From Elusimicrobiaceae bacterium (GTDB taxonomy: Bacteria; Elusimicrobiota; Elusimicrobia; Elusimicrobiales; Elusimicrobiaceae), in contig JAZNXF010000012.1 in the NCBI GenBank assembly GCA_045593745.1, forward strand, positions 21,575 to 85,574: a stretch of DNA of 64,000 bases, read 5' to 3'. The translations under genes were made by a program, and so were the position numbers. Shown one piece after another: positions 3,630 to 61,078 of the stretch. The first letter of the stretch is position 1; every line of letters begins with the position of its first letter. A model generated the notes under the pieces. It saw nothing but the letters and a program-made list of their open reading frames with translations, was not told the origin of the DNA and did no database searches.

Positions 3630-3842
3630 TATAAGTCCCCCTTGGCTAAATTTTAGCATTTTATCAACGAATAAATAAACAACAACTTACCCTCCAAATT
3701 GGGCAAAAATGTGCAGGATTGCGCAAAAGTTTTAGTACAAAGTAGGAAGAAATTATGTAAAATAAAAAAGTAGCAAAAAAATTTATTCTGTTTTTGGAAT
3801 CCTATGAAGAATAGGAGAGGGTTTCGGGTTAAACCGAAAAAC

Positions 3843-4005
3843 GCTCTAGCCGCCAAAGACAACCAGTATAGACACAAAGCGAAAGGACTTCGAACCCTTT
3901 TGCTTTGTGTCGAATGTTTATCGTTTTGCTTTTGAACAAATGATAAATTACGGCTGTTGGTTGTTAGGTTCTGGCTAGAGCACTTGCACCTGACAGCCGT
4001 TTTTT
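3843..4005 (+). ncRNA. Candidate cis-regulatory structured leader RNA (attenuator/riboswitch-like), copy A
   Basis: GCTCTAGCC/GGCTAGAGC outer stem, GACACAAAGC/GCTTTGTGTC hairpin, GAATG (3912), second hairpin, TACGGCTGTT (3949), ACAGCCGT followed by a T-run (3993-4005). The same fold occurs before all four pilin genes. Confidence 0.8.
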
Positions 4006-4052
4006 ATGGGGTTTTGACAGATAAATTGAATTTAACGGTAAAGGAGTAATGT

Positions 4053-4724
4053 ATGCAACATAGAAATACCCGGCGGGGTTTTACGCAACAAGAAAAAGAG
4101 GCCGTTATCTGTTCCCCTTGTGGGGAAAGTGTCGCGCAAGCGACAAAAGAGGGGCAAAATAAGGAAAAATCCTTATGGCCCCTCCTACCCCGCCTAACGG
4201 CGGTACTCCCTCCACAAGGGCGGGAGATGTCCTGGGGTTTTACGCTTATTGAATTACTGGTAGTAGTGTTAATTATTGGTATTTTGGCGGCGGTGGCCCT
4301 GCCGCAGTACCAAAAGGCCGTGGAAAAAAGTAGGATTGCGGAGGTAAAAATAGCATTAGATACTTTGCAAAAAGCAGTAGATCTTTATTTGCTTGAAAAT
4401 GGTTATCCTTCATCGGGTATTGTCTATTTTGTAGGAGAATCCTCTGCAGAAGATGCTACAAATGTCTCGTTGGATTTGGATATTACCAAAAGTATGGTTT
4501 GTTATGCTCCAGAAGATCCTTTTTGTGTAACAGATCACTTTTCTTATGATGCTTACTGCGAACCTTGGGGGTGTATTGTGGGTGCGGGGGATATTGATGT
4601 AAAGAATGCTGAAGAGTATTTGCGTAGTGATTACGACCGATATCGTTTGAGGTCAACAAAAAGCGCAGATACGAATCAATGGGTTAGAGAATGTATAGAT
4701 TGCCCTTCTTATGTAGAATGGTAA
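4053..4724 (+). CDS. Type IV pilin (PilE-like) with extended leader
   Basis: G|[29 protein letters not shown]-methylation motif; AAGGAG RBS. Confidence 0.92.
4111..4227. repeat. Palindromic REP/MITE-like element inserted in frame in the pilin leader
   Basis: Multi-hairpin TTCCCC..GGGGAA / GAGGGGC..GCCCCTC / CTCCCT..AGGG architecture; flanked by the 12-bp direct repeat GGGGTTTTACGC (4075-4086, 4234-4245); related copy at 34475-34577. Confidence 0.75.
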
Positions 4725-19595: not shown

Positions 19596-19606
19596 TATAA
19601 TAAAAA

Positions 19607-19929
19607 TGGTAGCCAGATAACCGCTCCCGGCTAACTTCAGCGCAGGGGGAGGAACTTCCGGACTCCACAGGGCAGTATGCCACCTGAAAGGGTGGGCTGG
19701 CGTTTTTTCTTTTTTTCGCCAGACGGAAAGTGCCGCAGAAAATAAACCGCCCGCAAGGGTAAGGGTGAAAAGGTGCGGTAAGAGCGCACCGCGCGCAAGG
19801 TAACAAGCGTGGCAGGGTAAACCCCATACGGAGCAAGGCCAAGCCGGTCCACAGGTGCCCGCCTTCGTGACCAAGTAGGCCGCTTAGAGTAATGGTTATC
19901 CACGACAGAATCCGGGGTACCGGCTACCA
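19607..19929 (+). ncRNA. rnpB: RNase P RNA (type A)
   Basis: TGGTAGCC/GGCTACCA P1, GAGGAACTTCCGGACTCC, GGAAAGTGCCGCAGAAAA, GGTAAACCCC, GAGCAAG, ACAGAATCCGG. Confidence 0.93.
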
Positions 19930-19945
19930 CATTTTCTTCTTTTTC

Positions 19946-20260
19946 TTCGTAATTTGGCGTATTTCGTTGTTGCTCACTTGCTCGAATACCTCCGCGCTAA
20001 CGCGCGCGTGCCGCCAGTATACTTCGCAAGTTCGCGCCTAGAACTACGCCAAATTTCTTTGAAAAACCCCCAGCCATTTGAGATGTAAGAATACTCTCTT
20101 TTTTTCGTAATTTGGCGTATTTCGTTCCCCGCATACAAGCTTTGCGGGGCTCCGTGCCTTTGGCACTTCGGTTCACGCTTACTTGCTCGAATCCCTCCGC
20201 GGTGCGAGCCGCACTCCCTTTCTGCGCGCGTGCCGCCAGTACACTGCGCGTTTGTACGCC
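19946..20260. repeat. Two tandem modular palindromic repeats downstream of rnpB
   Basis: TTCGTAATTTGGCGTATTTCGTT at 19946 and 20104; shared ACTTGCTCGAAT and GCGCGCGTGCCGCCAGTA blocks. Confidence 0.75.
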
Positions 20261-20410
20261 TGGCCCCATGTAAAATTAAATTATCCCCATTTTTTCTGAC
20301 TATTTATGGCGGGCTTTTTTTTCTTGTTAATTAGATAATTTTTTATTATACTATAGGTACAATTTGTTCTGTTTTTGGAACCGTTTAAGAAACGGAGTGC
20401 TTGAAAAAGT

Positions 20411-20564
20411 TCTTGTCTAGTCCAAAAATAGCCGACTTAGGTACAGCTGAAAACTATAGATTTGGCTGTGCCGAATGTTTTCCGTATCTGCCAGGCAGAT
20501 ATGGAAAACTACGGCTGTTATGGCTGGGACTCTAGACAAGACCTGTGCTGTATAGGCCGTTTTT
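20411..20564 (+). ncRNA. Candidate structured pilin-leader RNA, copy B
   Basis: TCTTGTCTAG/CTAGACAAGA outer stem, two hairpins separated by GAATG (20473), TACGGCTGTT (20510), GCCGTTTTT (20556). Confidence 0.8.
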
Positions 20565-20639
20565 GTTGGTTTCATAAGCAGAAGAATTGAACATATAGGT
20601 TGGGTGAAAACCCAACGTAAAAATAAGGAGAGTAAACTT

Positions 20640-21335
20640 ATGAACTACAAAAACACCCGGCGGGGAAAAACGCTTCATTTCAATACAGAAAAAAATATGG
20701 GATGTTACCGCTTCCCCCTAGAGGGGGAAGGTGGCCAAAGGCCGGATGAGGGGGAAAGTAATACAAAAGTTTTAGCCATTGGTCAACTAAGGATCCCCCT
20801 CACCTGCCCTACCGGGCATCCGCTCCCTCAAGGGAGAGAAAATGCACGCTCCGGGTTTACGCTTATTGAACTTTTGGTTGTTGTGCTTATTATCGGCATT
20901 TTGGCGGTGGTAGCGTTGCCGCAATACCAAAAAGCTGTCAAAAAGGCACGGGGCACAGAAGTATTAACGGCTCTAGATGCGTATGATAAAGCCATATCAT
21001 CCTATTATTTGACCCATGGTTTTTATGGCGGGGCCAGAGCCGATACATTAGATGTTCAGATGCCAATTTTGAAGCATTTTTTATATGCGTCTGTAGGCGG
21101 AGACAGAACGCCGGACTTTCAAGTAGGTAGCAATTTTCTCCAGGTAGGAACCGGAACATCTACACAGATATTGTTGGTAGAAAAAGGTACTACGTTAGGA
21201 GTATGGGCCGAGTGGGACAAAGGTTCACGGCCTCAGCGTTGGTGTTCGGACAATGGGAAAGATATTTCCAAAGAATGTGCTGCCTATTTTGGCCCCTGTA
21301 CATGGAACAGTATGTACAGGCGTTGCTACTTCTAA
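20640..21335 (+). CDS. Type IV pilin (PilE-like) with extended leader
   Basis: G|[24 protein letters not shown]; start at ATG 20640 after AAGGAG. Confidence 0.92.
   Translation: MNYKNTRRGKTLHFNTEKNMGCYRFPLEGEGGQRPDEGESNTKVLAIGQLRIPLTCPTGHPLPQGRENARSGFTLIELLVVVLIIGILAVVALPQYQKAVKKARGTEVLTALDAYDKAISSYYLTHGFYGGARADTLDVQMPILKHFLYASVGGDRTPDFQVGSNFLQVGTGTSTQILLVEKGTTLGVWAEWDKGSRPQRWCSDNGKDISKECAAYFGPCTWNSMYRRCYF
20711..20838. repeat. Palindromic element in frame in the pilin leader
   Basis: CTTCCCCCT-AG-AGGGGGAAG, TGAGGGGGA/TCCCCCTCA, CTCCCTCAAGGGAG; same architecture as 4111-4227. Confidence 0.7.
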
Positions 21336-32035: not shown

Positions 32036-34417
32036 ATGGTGTCTAAAGAATTAACCGAAGAACAACAAAAGGTTTTTGATGCGGTTATTAACAGCCAGAG
32101 CCCTTTTATTTTTATTCACGGAAAGGCCGGTACTGGTAAATCCTTTTTGGTGAAAAAAATCCAGCAACATTTTCATTGCCATATTTTGGTTCCCACCAAT
32201 ATGGCAAAATCCGTTTATTCTCATGATGTCAGTACCATACATTCCTTTTTTTCTGGAGAACTGGATGAGATTGAGAATGAATATCAAAATCCGTTTAATT
32301 ACAACGGCATCAAAAAGGGCCGGGTAAACCTTCAACATGTGGGACGTTTAATTTTGGATGAAATTTCTATGGTGCGGGCGGATTTGTTTGAAATGATGAA
32401 TAAAATCTGCCAGGTGGACAAAAGAAACAATGCCCCCTTTGGCGGCATACAAATTATCATTGTGGGGGATATGCTGCAACTGCCGCCGGTAGTGCAGGAA
32501 CCACCGGAAGGGGAAGAAAACGCGGTCAAGAAGTATTTGTTGGATACGTATGGCGGTATTTACTTTTTCAATAGTAAAGTAATACAAGAAAATTTAGACA
32601 AAATAGAGTTTTATGAACTAAAACAGTCCCAAAGACAAAAAGAGGATGCCGCTTACGAAAAATTATTAGATATACTGCGGGAACCCCAAGGGAATGAAAA
32701 CGCTTTGCGGGATGCGCTTGAAAAAATTAATAAACGGGTATGTCCTGCGACGGATATTCCAGCCCCCAACGAAGTTACGAGGATTGTTACCACCAATCAT
32801 GAGGTTGACAGAATCAACGCGGAACAATTAAGTGCTCTTGCGGGGGAAGAAAAAACTGCATTAGCCCACTTTGCAATTTACAAGAAAGATCACTCGCAAG
32901 AACTTCCTGAATTTGAGAAAATGCCCAATCCATACCTATTTGATGGAAAACCAGATCCTACCCAATATAATCCACAGGTTTATTATCCCTTGGATATCCC
33001 TTCTAAATTTACCCCGGTGCTAAAATATAAAATCGGTTCTAAAGTAATGTTTACCACAAATCATTATAAGAAGCAGGGAGTATATAATGGAGATTTTGGC
33101 ATAATCCAAGAAATCCCGGATAACTGCATCAAGGTAAAGCCGACTAAAAAAGATGGGGCAATTGACAGCATAGAAATCAAAAAGGAAACAGTCACACGTA
33201 AAGAAATAAAATACGACGAAAAAACTAAAAAATTAAAGGTGGGAAGAACCATTCAAGAAACGATGCAATATCCGCTTAAATCAGGTTATGCGTTCACTGT
33301 GCATAAATCACAAGGCCAGTCGTATGATAAAGTTGTATTAGATTTGGATAATGGGGCTATGTTCGCTTCTGGACAGACCTATGTGGCTTTGAGTAGGGCT
33401 AAAAGATTAGATGGGTTATACCTTACCAAACCTCTTACGGTGAGTGATTGCAGGGTAGATCCGCAATTAATTGGTTTTCTAAATCAAATGCGCAAGAAAA
33501 GCGAATTACCGGTTATTCCGGCTGAAATGTTGCTTGAGCGCGCGTTGGATGAATCGTGCAAAAAATTTAAAGATATAGTTTGTAGTAGTAAGTTGCCGCA
33601 AAGCGTCAAAGAGGATGTTTGCGCTCTGGTGCAGTATTATAATAATTCTTATGTAATTAGCCAATATCGGTTTGCAATGTCTGAGTTGGACCGTATTTTA
33701 TACCAAATTGAACCTTTTTGCACAGATATTAATTTTCTCAGACAACTCCATCAAGAGATACTAAAAGATGTAGAGGCAACCAAGGAATCTTGCGATAACA
33801 TGTTGCACAGAATAGGCAATCTTTGTCAGTTTGAGGTGTCGGGAAAATCAAACGAATTACTTCCAGTCGATCATCGTACAGTAATTGCCCAGCAAGAGGT
33901 TCCGTGGGCGCATGAGCAGATATTTGCGCATGCCGAAGAATACGGCTTTACCTATGAAAAACTGTTTGCACCATATCTTCAGGGATTTACAACAATCACT
34001 CTCAAAGAACCGTATCTGGAGCATGATTATCAATTTGAAAATTTGCAAGAATTTCTGGACTTGTTAGTTAAAATTAAAAACCCGGCTACTACACCGAGTT
34101 TGGAATTGGTAACGCTTCGTGTAAGATGGAATAGAGAGGAACAACAAAACCGTTTAAGTCCGCAAGAATGCATGAGCAAATTAAACAAGATTGAAAAATG
34201 TTATAGCCCAAAAATTAACTTTTTAGTTACGCATAAAGAGAAAATAGAATTGCATGACCGCGAAATCATAGCAGATACCGGTTGGAAAATAAAACTGGGC
34301 CGAGGATTGCATATTTGGAAGGAATCTAGGTATGACGAACGGAAACAGAATCAGGCCGATAGGCCCTGTTATGGCGGTTTTAGCATTATTTATTATAAAC
34401 CCCAGGATCTTGCTTGA
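32036..34417 (+). CDS. Pif1/RecD-like SF1 helicase with C-terminal MIT_C (PLD-like) domain
   Basis: GKAGTGKS, DEISM, GDMLQLPPV, AFTVHKSQGQS, YVALSRAK; C-terminal EPYL...HDREI..TGWKIKLGRGL. Confidence 0.8.
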   Translation: MVSKELTEEQQKVFDAVINSQSPFIFIHGKAGTGKSFLVKKIQQHFHCHILVPTNMAKSVYSHDVSTIHSFFSGELDEIENEYQNPFNYNGIKKGRVNLQHVGRLILDEISMVRADLFEMMNKICQVDKRNNAPFGGIQIIIVGDMLQLPPVVQEPPEGEENAVKKYLLDTYGGIYFFNSKVIQENLDKIEFYELKQSQRQKEDAAYEKLLDILREPQGNENALRDALEKINKRVCPATDIPAPNEVTRIVTTNHEVDRINAEQLSALAGEEKTALAHFAIYKKDHSQELPEFEKMPNPYLFDGKPDPTQYNPQVYYPLDIPSKFTPVLKYKIGSKVMFTTNHYKKQGVYNGDFGIIQEIPDNCIKVKPTKKDGAIDSIEIKKETVTRKEIKYDEKTKKLKVGRTIQETMQYPLKSGYAFTVHKSQGQSYDKVVLDLDNGAMFASGQTYVALSRAKRLDGLYLTKPLTVSDCRVDPQLIGFLNQMRKKSELPVIPAEMLLERALDESCKKFKDIVCSSKLPQSVKEDVCALVQYYNNSYVISQYRFAMSELDRILYQIEPFCTDINFLRQLHQEILKDVEATKESCDNMLHRIGNLCQFEVSGKSNELLPVDHRTVIAQQEVPWAHEQIFAHAEEYGFTYEKLFAPYLQGFTTITLKEPYLEHDYQFENLQEFLDLLVKIKNPATTPSLELVTLRVRWNREEQQNRLSPQECMSKLNKIEKCYSPKINFLVTHKEKIELHDREIIADTGWKIKLGRGLHIWKESRYDERKQNQADRPCYGGFSIIYYKPQDLA

Positions 34418-34474
34418 GAAACCCCTTATTGGACCTAATTGCCCAAAAAGTTGATATGTTAGGTTGGTTTTTTT

Positions 34475-34577
34475 GTCCCCTTTATGGGGAAAATGTCGCG
34501 TAAACGACAAAAAAAGGGGGGACGATGAAAACCTATTTATACCCGGTTGCGCCGTACTTCCCCCGCAAGGGGGGAAG
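34475..34577. repeat. Intergenic copy of the palindromic element found inside pilin A
   Basis: GTCCCCTTTATGGGGAAAATGTCGCGTAAACGACAAAA vs GTTCCCCTTGTGGGGAAAGTGTCGCGCAAGCGACAAAA. Confidence 0.75.
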
Positions 34578-34767
34578 AAAACAATACCAATGGGAAGCAG
34601 CCCATCTTTCAGACAGTATTACCAACAATTTTAAATATTAGTCCCAACATGTAGTTTATCTCTGGAAAAATATACTAAATTTGTTATAATTACAGTGTAA
34701 GTATAATACTTACGACAACTTAATCTGTTTTTGGCACTGTATAAAACCGGACGTATTGGCTACAATA

Positions 34768-34914
34768 CAGGCAATCAACCAAAACAGCCCATTAAAGCAT
34801 ACAGTTAAGGACCTCTAGAACCCTTGATTGTATGCTGAATGCTTGCCGCTTGCGGCGGGTTACGGCTGTTTATGTCGGGGTGTGATTGCCTGCCTGTCAT
34901 AAGGAGCCGTTTTT
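34768..34914 (+). ncRNA. Candidate structured pilin-leader RNA, copy D
   Basis: CAGGCAATCA/TGATTGCCTG outer stem, 15-bp hairpin, GAATG (34837), TACGGCTGTT (34861), AGCCGTTTTT (34905). Confidence 0.8.
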
Positions 34915-34940
34915 ATCAGGCCAAAACAAAGGAGACAATC

Positions 34941-35513
34941 ATGAAGAAACTGGCAATCAAACCTGCAAGCGGTTTTACCCTCATTGAACTGCTTGTTGTT
35001 GTACTTATCTTGGGGGTTTTGGCGGCGGTAGCACTGCCCCAATATACGAAAGTAGTAAAAAAATCCAGGGGGATTGAGGTGTTAGTGTCCTTAGATGCCT
35101 TGGACAAAGGGCTTACCGATTACTACTTGGAAAATGGTTCTTATATAGGTGTTACTCCGGCTTCATTGGATATCACTATTCCGGATATACATCATTTTAA
35201 GTATTTAGTAGGAACCGGCAGTAGGTATGAACAAGGTTTTTCCCAACCTTATGTGGATGCGTCAGCATCGGATAGTTATGTATATTTGCTATCACCAGAA
35301 AATATTTGGGTGATTGGTTCCTGGAAACAAGGCAAATTAAATTCTATATATTGTACGCCTTCGAGTCCAGGCGGTGTTCGCTTTTTTCAGCGAAACTCCT
35401 GCTCTGATTATTTTAATTGTGAGGCCACCCCATTGGTATATCACCCAGAAAGACAGACAGGATCCCTTCCTGACCCAGCTTATTATACCGGGGGAGCATG
35501 CTGGTTAAAATAA
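34941..35513 (+). CDS. Type IV pilin (PilE-like)
   Basis: MKKLAIKPASG|[24 protein letters not shown]; AAGGAG RBS. Confidence 0.92.
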   Translation: MKKLAIKPASGFTLIELLVVVLILGVLAAVALPQYTKVVKKSRGIEVLVSLDALDKGLTDYYLENGSYIGVTPASLDITIPDIHHFKYLVGTGSRYEQGFSQPYVDASASDSYVYLLSPENIWVIGSWKQGKLNSIYCTPSSPGGVRFFQRNSCSDYFNCEATPLVYHPERQTGSLPDPAYYTGGACWLK

Positions 35514-56470: not shown

Positions 56471-56543
56471 TGGACCGGACAGGACTTGAACCTGTGACCT
56501 TCCGCGTGTAAGGCGGACGCTCTACCAACTAAGCTACCGATCC
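56471..56543 (-). tRNA. tRNA-Val (anticodon TAC), CCA not encoded
   Basis: GGATCGG TAGCTTAGTTGGTAGAGC G TCCGC CTTACAC GCGGA AGGTC ACAGG TTCAAGT CCTGT CCGGTCC A. Confidence 0.96.
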
Positions 56544-58887: not shown

Positions 58888-58922
58888 ATTTCCTCCTTCA
58901 TTCTGTTGGGGATATAGACAAT

Positions 58923-59070
58923 AAAAACGGCTATAATGTCGCCTGGGAGTATCAGCAACCAAACGCCAAACAGCCGTAGTTCCGCGCAAAACGGAACATT
59001 AAACAGAAAATATCTCCGGAGCAACCCTTCGGTATTTTCTGTCTTAACGACTGTTTTGGGGCTGATACTC
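58923..59070 (-). ncRNA. Candidate structured pilin-leader RNA, copy C
   Basis: On the minus strand: GAGTATCAGC/GCTGATACTC outer stem, hairpin, TAATG, hairpin, CTACGGCTGTTT, TAGCCGTTTTT. Confidence 0.8.
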
Positions 59071-59350
59071 GTTTTAATTGTCTAAAACTTGCCTGCTAAC
59101 GCAGGAACCCAAAACAGAATAAATTTTTTATTACCTTTTTATTCTACATAATTTCTGTTTCTTTTAATAGGTATTTGGGAAAAAACGTAAGTACAAAACA
59201 AAACTTGACAAAACTAACAAAATTTGCTAACTTAAATACACAAGGCAATCAAACAAGCCGCAACCCACCTTTCAAAAGCACATTTTTGCGGCATCCAAAA
59301 CAAAAAAATCCCGCCGGATAACCGGCAGGATACAAAATGAATGTAGTATC

Positions 59351-59584: not shown

Positions 59585-61078
59585 ATGAAAAAAACAGAAC
59601 ACTATTTAAAACGCTACCAAGCGTTAAAACAAACAAGGTCTGCGTGGATGAATACCTGGAAAGAATTATCCACTTATATTGCACCCACGCGGGGGGTGTT
59701 TGAAGTGCAGGCCCCGCATGCGGCCAAACGTATAGACCACAAAACCCTGCTGGATAGTTCCGCCTCTCTGGCAGTGGGTATATTAGGGGCTGGCCTGATG
59801 AGCGGACTGACCAGCCCCTCGCGCCGGTGGTTTCATCTTACCTTGCGCCATGCGTATTTAAAGCAACTGCCCGGTGTGTCGGCGTGGCTACTGGAGGTTC
59901 AAAAAAGTATAGAACGCGCTTTGGCCAAAAGTAACTTGTACGCTGTGTTGCAAAGCGTGTACGAAGAAGTCAGCGTATTTGGCACAGCGGCTTTCTTGGT
60001 AGAAGAAGACCCGCAAGGGGGTATTTTCTGCCGTCCGTTTACCGCCGGGGAATATGTGCTGGATATAGACGAAAAAGGCCGCGTGAATACCTTTGGGCGG
60101 GAATTTAGCATGACGGCAGGGCAATTGGCCTCTTTCTTTGGAATTGATAATTTGCCACCGGCTATCCGTTTGGAGTTAGAGGGGCAGCAAGCATCTGCCC
60201 AGCACCAGGTAATACACCTTATTTTCCCTAATCCGCAAGCGGACAGTAAGTGGGAAGATTATATGCACTTTGCCTATAAATCGGTCTATATGCTTACAGA
60301 CGGAACCTTACTGCGGGAAGGGGGATACCATGAATTTCCGGTAGTGGCAGTCCGTTGGGAAACAAAAAATACTTCGGAAATTTACGGCCGCGGCCCGGGG
60401 TGGAAAGTGTTGGGCGACGTAAAAATGCTTCAAAAAATGCAAAAAACCAAACTGGTGGCCTTAGACAAAAACACCAACCCGCCCGTCATGGTGTCTGCCA
60501 GTGTGCAAGGGGAAGTGAATTTACTTCCGGGGGGAATTACGCGGTGCAATAGTTTAACGGATGCCGCTGTAAAACCTGCCTACCAGGTACAGGCAGATTT
60601 ATCCTCGTTAGATGATACGATGGAGCAAGTGCGCCACACCATTAGTTCCCACTTTTTTGCAGATGTGTTTTTAATGTTGTCTTCGCAGGATTCTCCTACC
60701 CGCACGGCGGCTGAAGTAGCCGAACGCCGCCAGGAAAAAATGCTTATGTTGGGGCCTGTGTTTCAGCGGTTAAAAACGGAACTGTTAGACCCGCTGATTG
60801 AGCGTACTTATTTTATTTTGCTACGCCAAGGCATATTGCCGCCCGCTCCGGAATATTTGCACGGCCTGGAGTTGCAGGTAACCTATATTTCCACGATCGC
60901 CCAGGCCCAGCGTGCCAGTGCGGTGGAACCGTTACTGCAGGGGCTTGAACTGGCAGAACGTATTGCGCAAAGTGACCCGGCTTCTATCAGTCAGTTAGAT
61001 TACGCACATGCACTACGGGAAGGATTGGAAAGTTTAGGCGTAGATGCGATGCTTTATCCCCAGGAGAACAATCAATGA
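59585..61078 (+). CDS. Phage portal (head-tail connector), T7/BPP-1-like
   Basis: GLMSGLTSPSRRWF, YGRGPG, RTAAEVAERRQEKMLMLGPV..RL..ELLDPLIER. Confidence 0.9.
   Translation: MKKTEHYLKRYQALKQTRSAWMNTWKELSTYIAPTRGVFEVQAPHAAKRIDHKTLLDSSASLAVGILGAGLMSGLTSPSRRWFHLTLRHAYLKQLPGVSAWLLEVQKSIERALAKSNLYAVLQSVYEEVSVFGTAAFLVEEDPQGGIFCRPFTAGEYVLDIDEKGRVNTFGREFSMTAGQLASFFGIDNLPPAIRLELEGQQASAQHQVIHLIFPNPQADSKWEDYMHFAYKSVYMLTDGTLLREGGYHEFPVVAVRWETKNTSEIYGRGPGWKVLGDVKMLQKMQKTKLVALDKNTNPPVMVSASVQGEVNLLPGGITRCNSLTDAAVKPAYQVQADLSSLDDTMEQVRHTISSHFFADVFLMLSSQDSPTRTAAEVAERRQEKMLMLGPVFQRLKTELLDPLIERTYFILLRQGILPPAPEYLHGLELQVTYISTIAQAQRASAVEPLLQGLELAERIAQSDPASISQLDYAHALREGLESLGVDAMLYPQENNQ

Follow-up and report, generated by a model that had tools for sequence, protein, structure and literature searches.

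The stretch of DNA analysed here, called the window throughout, comprises 64,000 nucleotides (64 kb) of an Elusimicrobiaceae genome, and positions are counted from its first letter. A leader element spans 20368-20567 on the forward strand, as delimited by a covariance-model match, and precedes a type IV pilin-like gene; the window has four related copies (A to D), of which this is copy B. Upstream of it, a class A RNase P RNA is recognized by Rfam at 19605-19935 (+; 211 bits), and the order RNase P RNA-leader-pilin is syntenic with that of a second Elusimicrobiaceae locus (L023). Between the RNase P RNA and the promoter of copy B lie two tandem MITE-like repeats (19940-20277), the first of which (19940-20066) is bounded by terminal inverted repeats of 26 nt; 79 nt of this material (19965-20043) are 95% identical to sequence from another Elusimicrobiaceae species (L029:1068-1146), and the MITE-like spacer gave no match to Rfam. 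A further hairpin, GGUUGGGU-GAAA-ACCCAAC, is found at 20599-20616, between the copy B terminator and the ribosome-binding site of the pilin gene. The parts of the locus, several of them predicted, are as follows.

20324-20352, +: sigma-70-like promoter, TTGTTA, a 17-nt spacer and TATACT (20347-20352), scoring 9/12 in a consensus scan
20358-20363, +: second candidate -10 hexamer, TACAAT, whose distance to strand s1 is fixed across the family
20368-20379, +: strand s1, UCUGUUUUUGGA (20368-20378 being TCTGTTTTTGG), which pairs with s2 to give the predicted anti-antiterminator helix
20381-20395, +: hairpin Pa, CCGUUU-AAG-AAACGG, from the fold and the alignment
about 20396-20410, +: hairpin Pb, weak and variable, directly after Pa
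20411-20420 with 20532-20541, +: helix P1a, TCTTGTCTAG with CTAGACAAGA, as read in the sequence
20411-20420, +: 5' strand of P1a, UCUUGUCUAG
20421-20434, +: strand s2, UCCAAAAAUAGCCG, its 5' part pairing with s1 and its 3' part, AAUAGCCG, with s3 as P1b
20427-20434 with 20512-20519, +: helix P1b, AATAGCCG with CGGCTGTT, 8 bp including one G.U
20440-20451 with 20461-20472, +: stem of P2, GGTACAGCTGAA with TTTGGCTGTGCC, 12 bp including three G.U
20440-20472, +: hairpin P2, the 12-bp stem with a 9-nt loop, AACUAUAGA (20452-20460)
20473-20477, +: junction J2/3, GAAUG (GAATG in the DNA), in which A20475 pairs with U20510, U20476 is bulged and G20477 pairs with C20509
20478-20508, +: hairpin P3, 20478-20490 with 20496-20508 (13 bp; 15 bp in the fold)
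20509-20519, +: junction J3/1 and strand s3, CUACGGCUGUU, forming either the 3' strand of P1b or the 5' arm of the terminator
20511-20564, +: intrinsic terminator, ACGGCU (20511-20516) with GGCCGU (20555-20560), then U5 (20560-20564)
20532-20541, +: 3' strand of P1a, CUAGACAAGA, within the apical part of the terminator hairpin
20640-21335, +: type IV pilin-like gene with GFTLIELL (Pfam N_methyl, E 1.5e-7)

An earlier note on this locus had described P1a, P1b, P2 with its three G.U pairs, GAATG, P3, a terminator and T5, and all of these were found where it had placed them; its TATACT hexamer was likewise confirmed, together with the TTGTTA upstream. The terminator that it gave as ACGGC/GCCGT plus T5 is present, although the stem is actually longer, and its 5' boundary at 20411 had to be abandoned, the element beginning about 45 nt farther upstream at the conserved strand s1. 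Strand s1, the pair joining GAAUG to CUA, the self-complementary loop of P2 and the targets other than pilins had not figured in it. TATACT at 20347 and TACAAT at 20358 are both candidate -10 hexamers for copy B; in the upstream profile of the family, nAnAAT is conserved just 5' of s1 and TATAAT-like hexamers occur at variable distance. A search of RNA-seq runs for the window and for two related 8-kb loci gave no match.

Folding of 20400-20580 with RNAfold returned exactly the P1a/P1b/P2/P3 three-way junction at -71.5 kcal/mol, with a z-score of -5.75 and none of 200 shuffles folding as well; for the window copies that were folded (A, B and C), z ranged from -5.75 to -7.7. The P2 hairpin of copy B has a folding energy of -14.5 kcal/mol (z -5.6), and the terminator hairpin (20511-20560), which encloses a second helix of 6-10 bp inside ACGGCU/GGCCGU, gave -20.4 kcal/mol when folded alone. 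A simple terminator scanner misses this terminator because its loop limit is 8 nt. At the position of Pa a hairpin is kept in the family alignment, though the sequences differ.

Copies, relatives and downstream genes

Exactly four copies of the element, each ahead of a type IV pilin-like gene, were identified in the window with the covariance model, after a first round of BLAST and pattern searches. The three copies other than B are listed here.

3787-4007, +: copy A, 138 bits, before pilin ORF 4053-4724; P2 loop AC-UUCGAA-C
34724-34917, +: copy C, 116.7 bits, before pilin ORF 34941-35513; P2 loop ACC-UCUAGA-AC
58920-59118, -: copy D, 96.8 bits, before pilin ORF 58887-58378, which is uninterrupted; J2/3 reads UAAUG and the loop has no clear palindrome

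The terminator hairpins of copies A, C and D have energies of -21 to -26 kcal/mol and are followed by U5-6, and in all four window copies a stable hairpin is followed by a U-tract, as in intrinsic terminators. The four pilin genes occur singly and are dispersed amid housekeeping genes. Just upstream of copy C, an ORF at 32036-34417 (+) encodes a PIF1/RecD-like helicase fused to a phospholipase-D-like (MIT_C) domain, and beside copy D an ORF at 59585-61078 (+) encodes a phage head-to-tail connector (portal) protein (Pfam, E 1.7e-147), which suggests a prophage or a remnant of one. A tRNA gene was matched by the Rfam tRNA model at 56471-56543 (-; 74 bits).

More than 230 sequences from Elusimicrobiaceae genomes and from gut and rumen metagenomes constitute the family. 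An exact-pattern scan of one genome per prokaryotic species gave at least 109 loci, and among the matches listed nearly all lay in Elusimicrobiaceae bins from rumen, gut and termite, about five being chance matches; a scan of metagenomes with a pattern that left the junction free gave at least 120 loci from rumen, human-gut and other gut samples. The copy numbers and the taxonomic range are to be read as minimum values. Relatives were retrieved through exact patterns in s3 and s4 (or in s1, s3 and s4), and the invariance of s3 and s4 is partly imposed because the search patterns fixed these strands. Across the family the element is about 200 bases long and is ordered as s1; Pa and Pb; the 5' strand of P1a; s2, UCCAAAAAYAGCCG; J1/2, ending in A; P2; J2/3, NARUG; P3; J3/1 with s3, CYACGGCUGUU; a spacer; the 3' strand of P1a; s4, (A)ACAGCCG; and U5-6. 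A syntenic ortholog of copy B in another species, beside the RNase P RNA, is 59% identical and keeps every helix. In an Elusimicrobiaceae bin with a leader at the corresponding place downstream of its RNase P RNA, that RNA shares 88.7% identity with the one in the window.

Rfam 15 at gathering threshold returned no leader match over the whole window, its hits being the RNase P RNA and one tRNA elsewhere, and at E<=10 or E<=1 no riboswitch, PyrR or other leader was returned for copies A and B and the best family member. No account of an Elusimicrobia pilin leader was found in the literature, Breaker-lab discovery papers included. On these searches, the putative leader RNA family of gut Elusimicrobiaceae is previously undescribed.

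Downstream of 100 of the 115 copies lies a start codon with a Shine-Dalgarno motif on the same strand, at a median of 40.5 nt past the element and within 60 nt in 82 of these 100; behind copies C and D, only about 25-30 nt separate the U-tract from the ribosome-binding site. A separate promoter between terminator and gene is ruled out by this spacing and, since the start codons lie too near the terminator for a promoter of their own, the downstream genes are predicted to depend on read-through. The prepilin N_methyl motif was recognized in 75 of the 100 downstream proteins, many of which also match ComP_DUS or Pilin_GH, and the non-pilin proteins include GT2 and GT8 glycosyltransferases, EpsG, a polysaccharide pyruvyl transferase and an EcoRI-like adenine methylase. 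In the metagenome set, 63 of 101 downstream proteins are pilin-like, and the remainder, judged from N-terminal sequences, includes further GT2/GT8/GT9-like enzymes, RmlA, lipoproteins and five more copies of the methylase. The description "pilin leader", under which the element had first been recorded, thus fits about 65-75% of the family, and the other quarter to third precede surface genes that are not pilins. Cell-surface genes of such kind are often phase-variable in host-associated bacteria.

The pilin ORFs behind copies A and B contain an in-frame insert of about 150-190 nt (4071-4244 and about 20665-20850, with a related piece at 34474-34518) between the ancestral start (M..NTRRG) and GFTLIELL; that of copy A is flanked by a 12-nt direct repeat, GGGGTTTTACGC. 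At its 3' end the insert carries a small hairpin, a ribosome-binding site and an ATG from which prepilin leaders of normal short length would result, and ATG 20842 is a likely alternative start of the copy B pilin gene. The copy D pilin is uninterrupted, and the same long spacing is seen in about a third of the family's pilins.

Two competing folds

The 5' part of s2 can pair with strand s1, and s3 is complementary both to the 3' part of s2 and to s4, such that two folds can be drawn. Fold I consists of s1:s2, P2, P3 and a three-helix terminator (s3:s4), and is the consensus obtained with RNAalifold; fold II consists of P1a and P1b (s2:s3), which close a three-way junction of P1, P2 and P3. 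In copy B, s1:s2 is a helix of 11 bp (fold of 20359-20434) that overlaps P1b by 5 nt. The family was aligned as 89 sequences and later as 121 covariance-model hits, and alignment A2 was fitted to fold I. Over the 121 sequences, fold I is 96% paired and holds 708 double-change cells against 185 in shuffles, and its pairing drops to about 40% when the partners are slid. Among its helices, s1:s2 is paired in 97-99% of cells over the same sequences, with few double changes, so that its covariation support is weak; s3:s4 is 97% paired; the terminator helices are 85-97% paired family-wide, with covariation in the inner ones; all 10 modelled pairs of P2 covary; and P3 is 98% paired with double changes in nine of nine pairs.

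Fold II leaves its own trace. In an alignment not built around it, P1a is still 74% paired and every one of its 10 positions shows four to six types of pair, and the best helix at P1a averages 9.8 bp when a member's own partner strand is used and 5.6 bp with the partners of other members. Among all segment pairs this is by far the strongest own-specific complementarity, and beyond P1a and the terminator no further variable long-range helix was found in a comparison of all segment pairs in cis. P1b is 93.6% paired. Selection on RNA had been argued for this locus from G-U substitutions, in agreement with which the s2 side of P1b varies almost only from C to U, keeping G.U. In one member s2, s3 and s4 were altered together (AGUCG, CGACU and AGUCG). 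A new covarying pair, tertiary or an extension, joins base 3 of GAAUG to the U of CUA, skipping a bulged U; it appears in an unbiased metagenome sample as A-U in 53 members, G-C in 53 and G.U in three, with no mismatches. Support from the covariance model and from the pair statistics is confined to one strand.

When the two folds were imposed as constraints on 112 members, the median difference between them was 4.9 kcal/mol, on totals of about 80, the values for copy B being -75.9 and -74.7 kcal/mol; without constraint, the lowest-energy fold was fold I for copy A and fold II for copies B and C. Two features expected of an attenuator are thus present. The antiterminator shares a strand with the terminator, s3 pairing with s2 or with s4 in near-isoenergetic alternatives, and an anti-antiterminator that would sequester the antiterminator strand is available in s1:s2, with the weak covariation given above. 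Comparative data in this way support the structured pilin leader RNA of the earlier note, in which the P1b strand competes with the terminator, and the structure goes beyond chance in its z-score (-5.75), in its three further copies in the window and in the compensatory changes among the more than 230 relatives. A pseudoknot in which P1a and the terminator exist together is conceivable, and the two states would then differ in P1b alone.

Read from sequence comparison, the element very likely has an attenuator core in which the terminator competes with P1a/P1b and s1:s2 enters as a third competitor. Such an arrangement resembles the E. coli trp leader (strands 1-4) and the Bacillus pyr leaders in its overlapping 1:2, 2:3 and 3:4 pairings followed by a U-tract, and in its position in the 5' leader directly before the gene that it would regulate. 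It differs from trp in having no conserved leader peptide, and trp-type attenuation was ruled out on that ground: a start codon with a Shine-Dalgarno motif and at least eight codons occurs in only 43 of 115 members, at scattered positions, and s1 lies at or near the 5' end. It differs from pyr in having neither a PyrR-type binding loop nor an Rfam match, and from both in that the antiterminator encloses two extra hairpins in a three-way junction and includes the hypervariable helix P1a. That both alternative folds are visible in covariation is rare.

The self-complementary P2 loop

In copy B the loop of P2 reads AA-CUAUAG-A, the palindrome CUAUAG occupying 20454-20459. A palindrome of at least 6 nt is present in the P2 loop of 82 of 115 members, where shuffles gave a mean of 5.6 and a maximum of 13, and one of at least 4 nt in 108 of 115; counted over distinct loops, 28 of 45 have a palindrome (2.4 expected), and an independent metagenome set has one of at least 6 nt in 79 of 107. 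P3 loops, which served as an internal control, contained a palindrome in one of 115 and, in the metagenome set, in none of 109. A self-complementary core of 4-6 nt is found in about 90% of members, and copy D and about 6-10% are without it.

The cores are of at least 16 different kinds, including UAAUUA, UCAUGA, UUAUAA, UUCGAA, UUGCAA, UCUAGA, CUAUAG, CUCGAG, GUGCAC, UGUACA, GAUC, AGCU and GGCC, and several loop types occur among the paralogs of one genome, as with UUCGAA, CUAUAG and UCUAGA in copies A, B and C of the window and no palindrome in copy D. In two leaders that are 83.5% identical outside the loop, UUGCAA and UUCGAA differ by a double change that keeps self-complementarity. The typical loop has 9 nt, with the core 2 nt from its 5' end and 1 nt from its 3' end (46 of 82). 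About 80-86% of members have a P2 of 41-42 nt, copy B belonging to a shorter class of 30-34 nt, and the length of P3 varies from 13 to 36 nt.

Neither a second copy of the palindrome nor any other cis partner for the P2 loop was detected in a search for complementarity between segment pairs. The palindrome as by-product of a perfect inverted repeat in the DNA was rejected, because the unpaired flanks of the core are asymmetric and P3 loops have no enrichment. In the dimerization initiation site of HIV-1, the kissing loop of SL1 reads AA-GCGCGC-A or AA-GUGCAC-A, and the P2 loops match it in several respects: a self-complementary core lies in a loop of about 9 nt, where 2 nt precede and 1 nt follows a central 6-nt palindrome in the 46 of 82 loops just mentioned; the palindromes differ between lineages through compensatory core changes that leave them self-complementary; and one family member has A-GUGCAC-A. 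The likeness lies in the loop sequence, and it concerns a bacterial mRNA leader, not a viral genome, with many weak palindromes made of A and U only. As free duplexes under nearest-neighbour rules, the cores span -1.8 to -10.9 kcal/mol, and the commonest, UAAUUA and UUAUAA, reach only -1.8 kcal/mol against -11 to -14 for the HIV-1 loops. Retroviral genome dimerization was discovered through a signature of this kind, a hypervariable self-complementary loop on a length-fixed hairpin, and the tip of P2 looks built for pairing with a second copy of itself.

Regulatory interpretation and its alternatives

Copy B is probably a cis-acting conditional transcription attenuator in the leader of the pilin gene, and as such a member of an Elusimicrobiaceae RNA family. 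In fold I, pairing of s1 with s2 would leave s3 free for s4, and s3:s4 would give the long terminator hairpin which, with U5, would stop transcription after about 200 nt. In fold II, s2:s3 would form as P1b, the variable P1a would zip beneath it and the junction would close around P2 and P3, thereby removing the 5' arm of the terminator and allowing RNA polymerase to read into the pilin gene.

As to the signal, we tentatively suggest homotypic kissing between leaders through P2, a possibility rather than an expectation. The self-complementary loop would kiss the same loop on another leader RNA of its type, terminated leaders would accumulate and feed back on nascent ones, and each loop type would confer its own autoregulatory or bistable control on a surface gene. 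Kissing is favoured because nothing else explains a hypervariable, self-complementary loop on a hairpin of fixed length. Against it stand the weakness of the commonest cores and the missing palindrome in copy D and some other members; moreover, P2 is not one of the competing strands, and kissing therefore gives no account of how the choice is tipped. If correct, it would recall the rep attenuation systems of pT181, pIP501 and pAMbeta1, in which a loop-loop contact decides between pre-emptor and terminator. The regulator of those plasmids is, however, a counter-transcript from the opposite strand that binds the switching strands themselves, whereas the partner of the leader would be of the same sense and the contact would lie in P2, outside them. 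In its full form the proposal is that same-sense leaders recognize one another through type-specific P2 loops and so set the terminator decision, giving a switch that needs no protein, is addressed to individual paralogs, is autoregulatory or bistable and resembles phase variation; its targets would be pilins, surface glycosyltransferases and an orphan DNA methylase. So extended, the proposal is speculative and rather doubtful.

The same core could instead be governed by a protein, a PyrR-like regulator or a NusG paralog of the LoaP/UpxY/RfaH-like kind that stabilizes one fold, by binding the 5' domain (s1:s2 and Pa) or the junction and leaving the P2 loop some other role; we regard this as conceivable but not likely. 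Anti-antiterminator, antiterminator and terminator follow one another as in the Bacillus pyr leaders, the downstream genes (pilins, GT2/GT8/GT9, RmlA, EpsG and lipoproteins) resemble the regulons of specialized NusG paralogs, and the roughly four conserved unpaired nucleotides of the junction are few for a metabolite pocket. Yet no conserved loop that might be a protein site was found, the loop of Pa varying between GNAGA, GCAA and AAG, no Rfam match to PyrR or other protein-binding leader families was obtained, no candidate protein gene was identified, and a self-complementary P2 of constrained length is left unexplained.

A small molecule is an unlikely signal. The P1/P2/P3 junction would then be an aptamer, for c-di-GMP for example, and the ligand would stabilize P1 and turn surface genes on. 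A junction in which the 3' strand of P1 doubles as terminator arm is the classic layout of an ON-riboswitch, known from three-way-junction classes such as the purine riboswitches, and the family shares with these its conserved junction nucleotides, which show strict conservation along with an R254-Y313 pair; c-di-GMP, besides, typically controls pili and exopolysaccharide genes. In Clostridioides difficile (C. difficile), the type IV pilin gene pilA1 likewise has a terminator-based leader, the c-di-GMP-II riboswitch; its architecture is unrelated, however, and neither the c-di-GMP-I nor the c-di-GMP-II model matched. Indeed no Rfam riboswitch class matched even at E<=10, and the family departs from purine-type riboswitches in having very few conserved unpaired nucleotides (about four positions), a P1 of about 18 bp that would be stable without ligand, a competitor strand at the 5' end and a P2 loop that is hypervariable, self-complementary and not docked on P3. 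Strand s1 and the palindromic loop would be superfluous in such a model, and the target genes are structural surface genes and not those of a metabolic pathway.

It is very unlikely that the element is a stand-alone sRNA gene, from which a terminated RNA of about 200 nt would act in trans or as an RNA-only dimer while the downstream gene is independent or transcribed by incidental read-through. Its own predicted promoter, its strong terminator, the many copies per genome and a dimer-type loop reminiscent of RNA-only assemblies would suit this, but 100 of 115 copies precede a same-strand gene at a median of 40 nt, with no space for another promoter, and constitutive termination is hard to square with the data because no feature covaries as strongly as the antiterminator helix P1a. 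Least probable of all is an element acting as DNA (a MITE, an operator or a methylation-site cassette with palindromes), for although it is multi-copy, its loop palindromes resemble type II restriction-modification recognition sites, an EcoRI-like methylase gene follows some members and MITE-like repeats adjoin copy B, the changes in six helices are G.U-tolerant and fully compensatory on one strand only, orientation and distance to downstream genes are fixed, no terminal inverted repeats or target-site duplications surround the element, and the palindrome is embedded in a loop that is not itself palindromic, its flanks of 2 and 1 nt being unequal.

Conditional attenuation of surface genes remains the preferred reading. 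A well-supported multi-copy family of cis-regulatory RNAs from a poorly studied phylum would join the catalogue, and it suggests that dozens of scattered pilin and envelope genes in gut Elusimicrobiaceae share one layer of control. Should the leaders dimerize, they would represent a new RNA-only wiring of gene-specific feedback and a compact natural set of orthogonal kissing loops.

Among the genes that follow the leader, the EcoRI-like adenine methyltransferase recurs at seven loci (L076, L098, L100, L117, L144, L198 and L223) in several species. No restriction gene was noticed beside it in the portion read, and the combination of leader and methyltransferase would fit a switchable orphan methylase.
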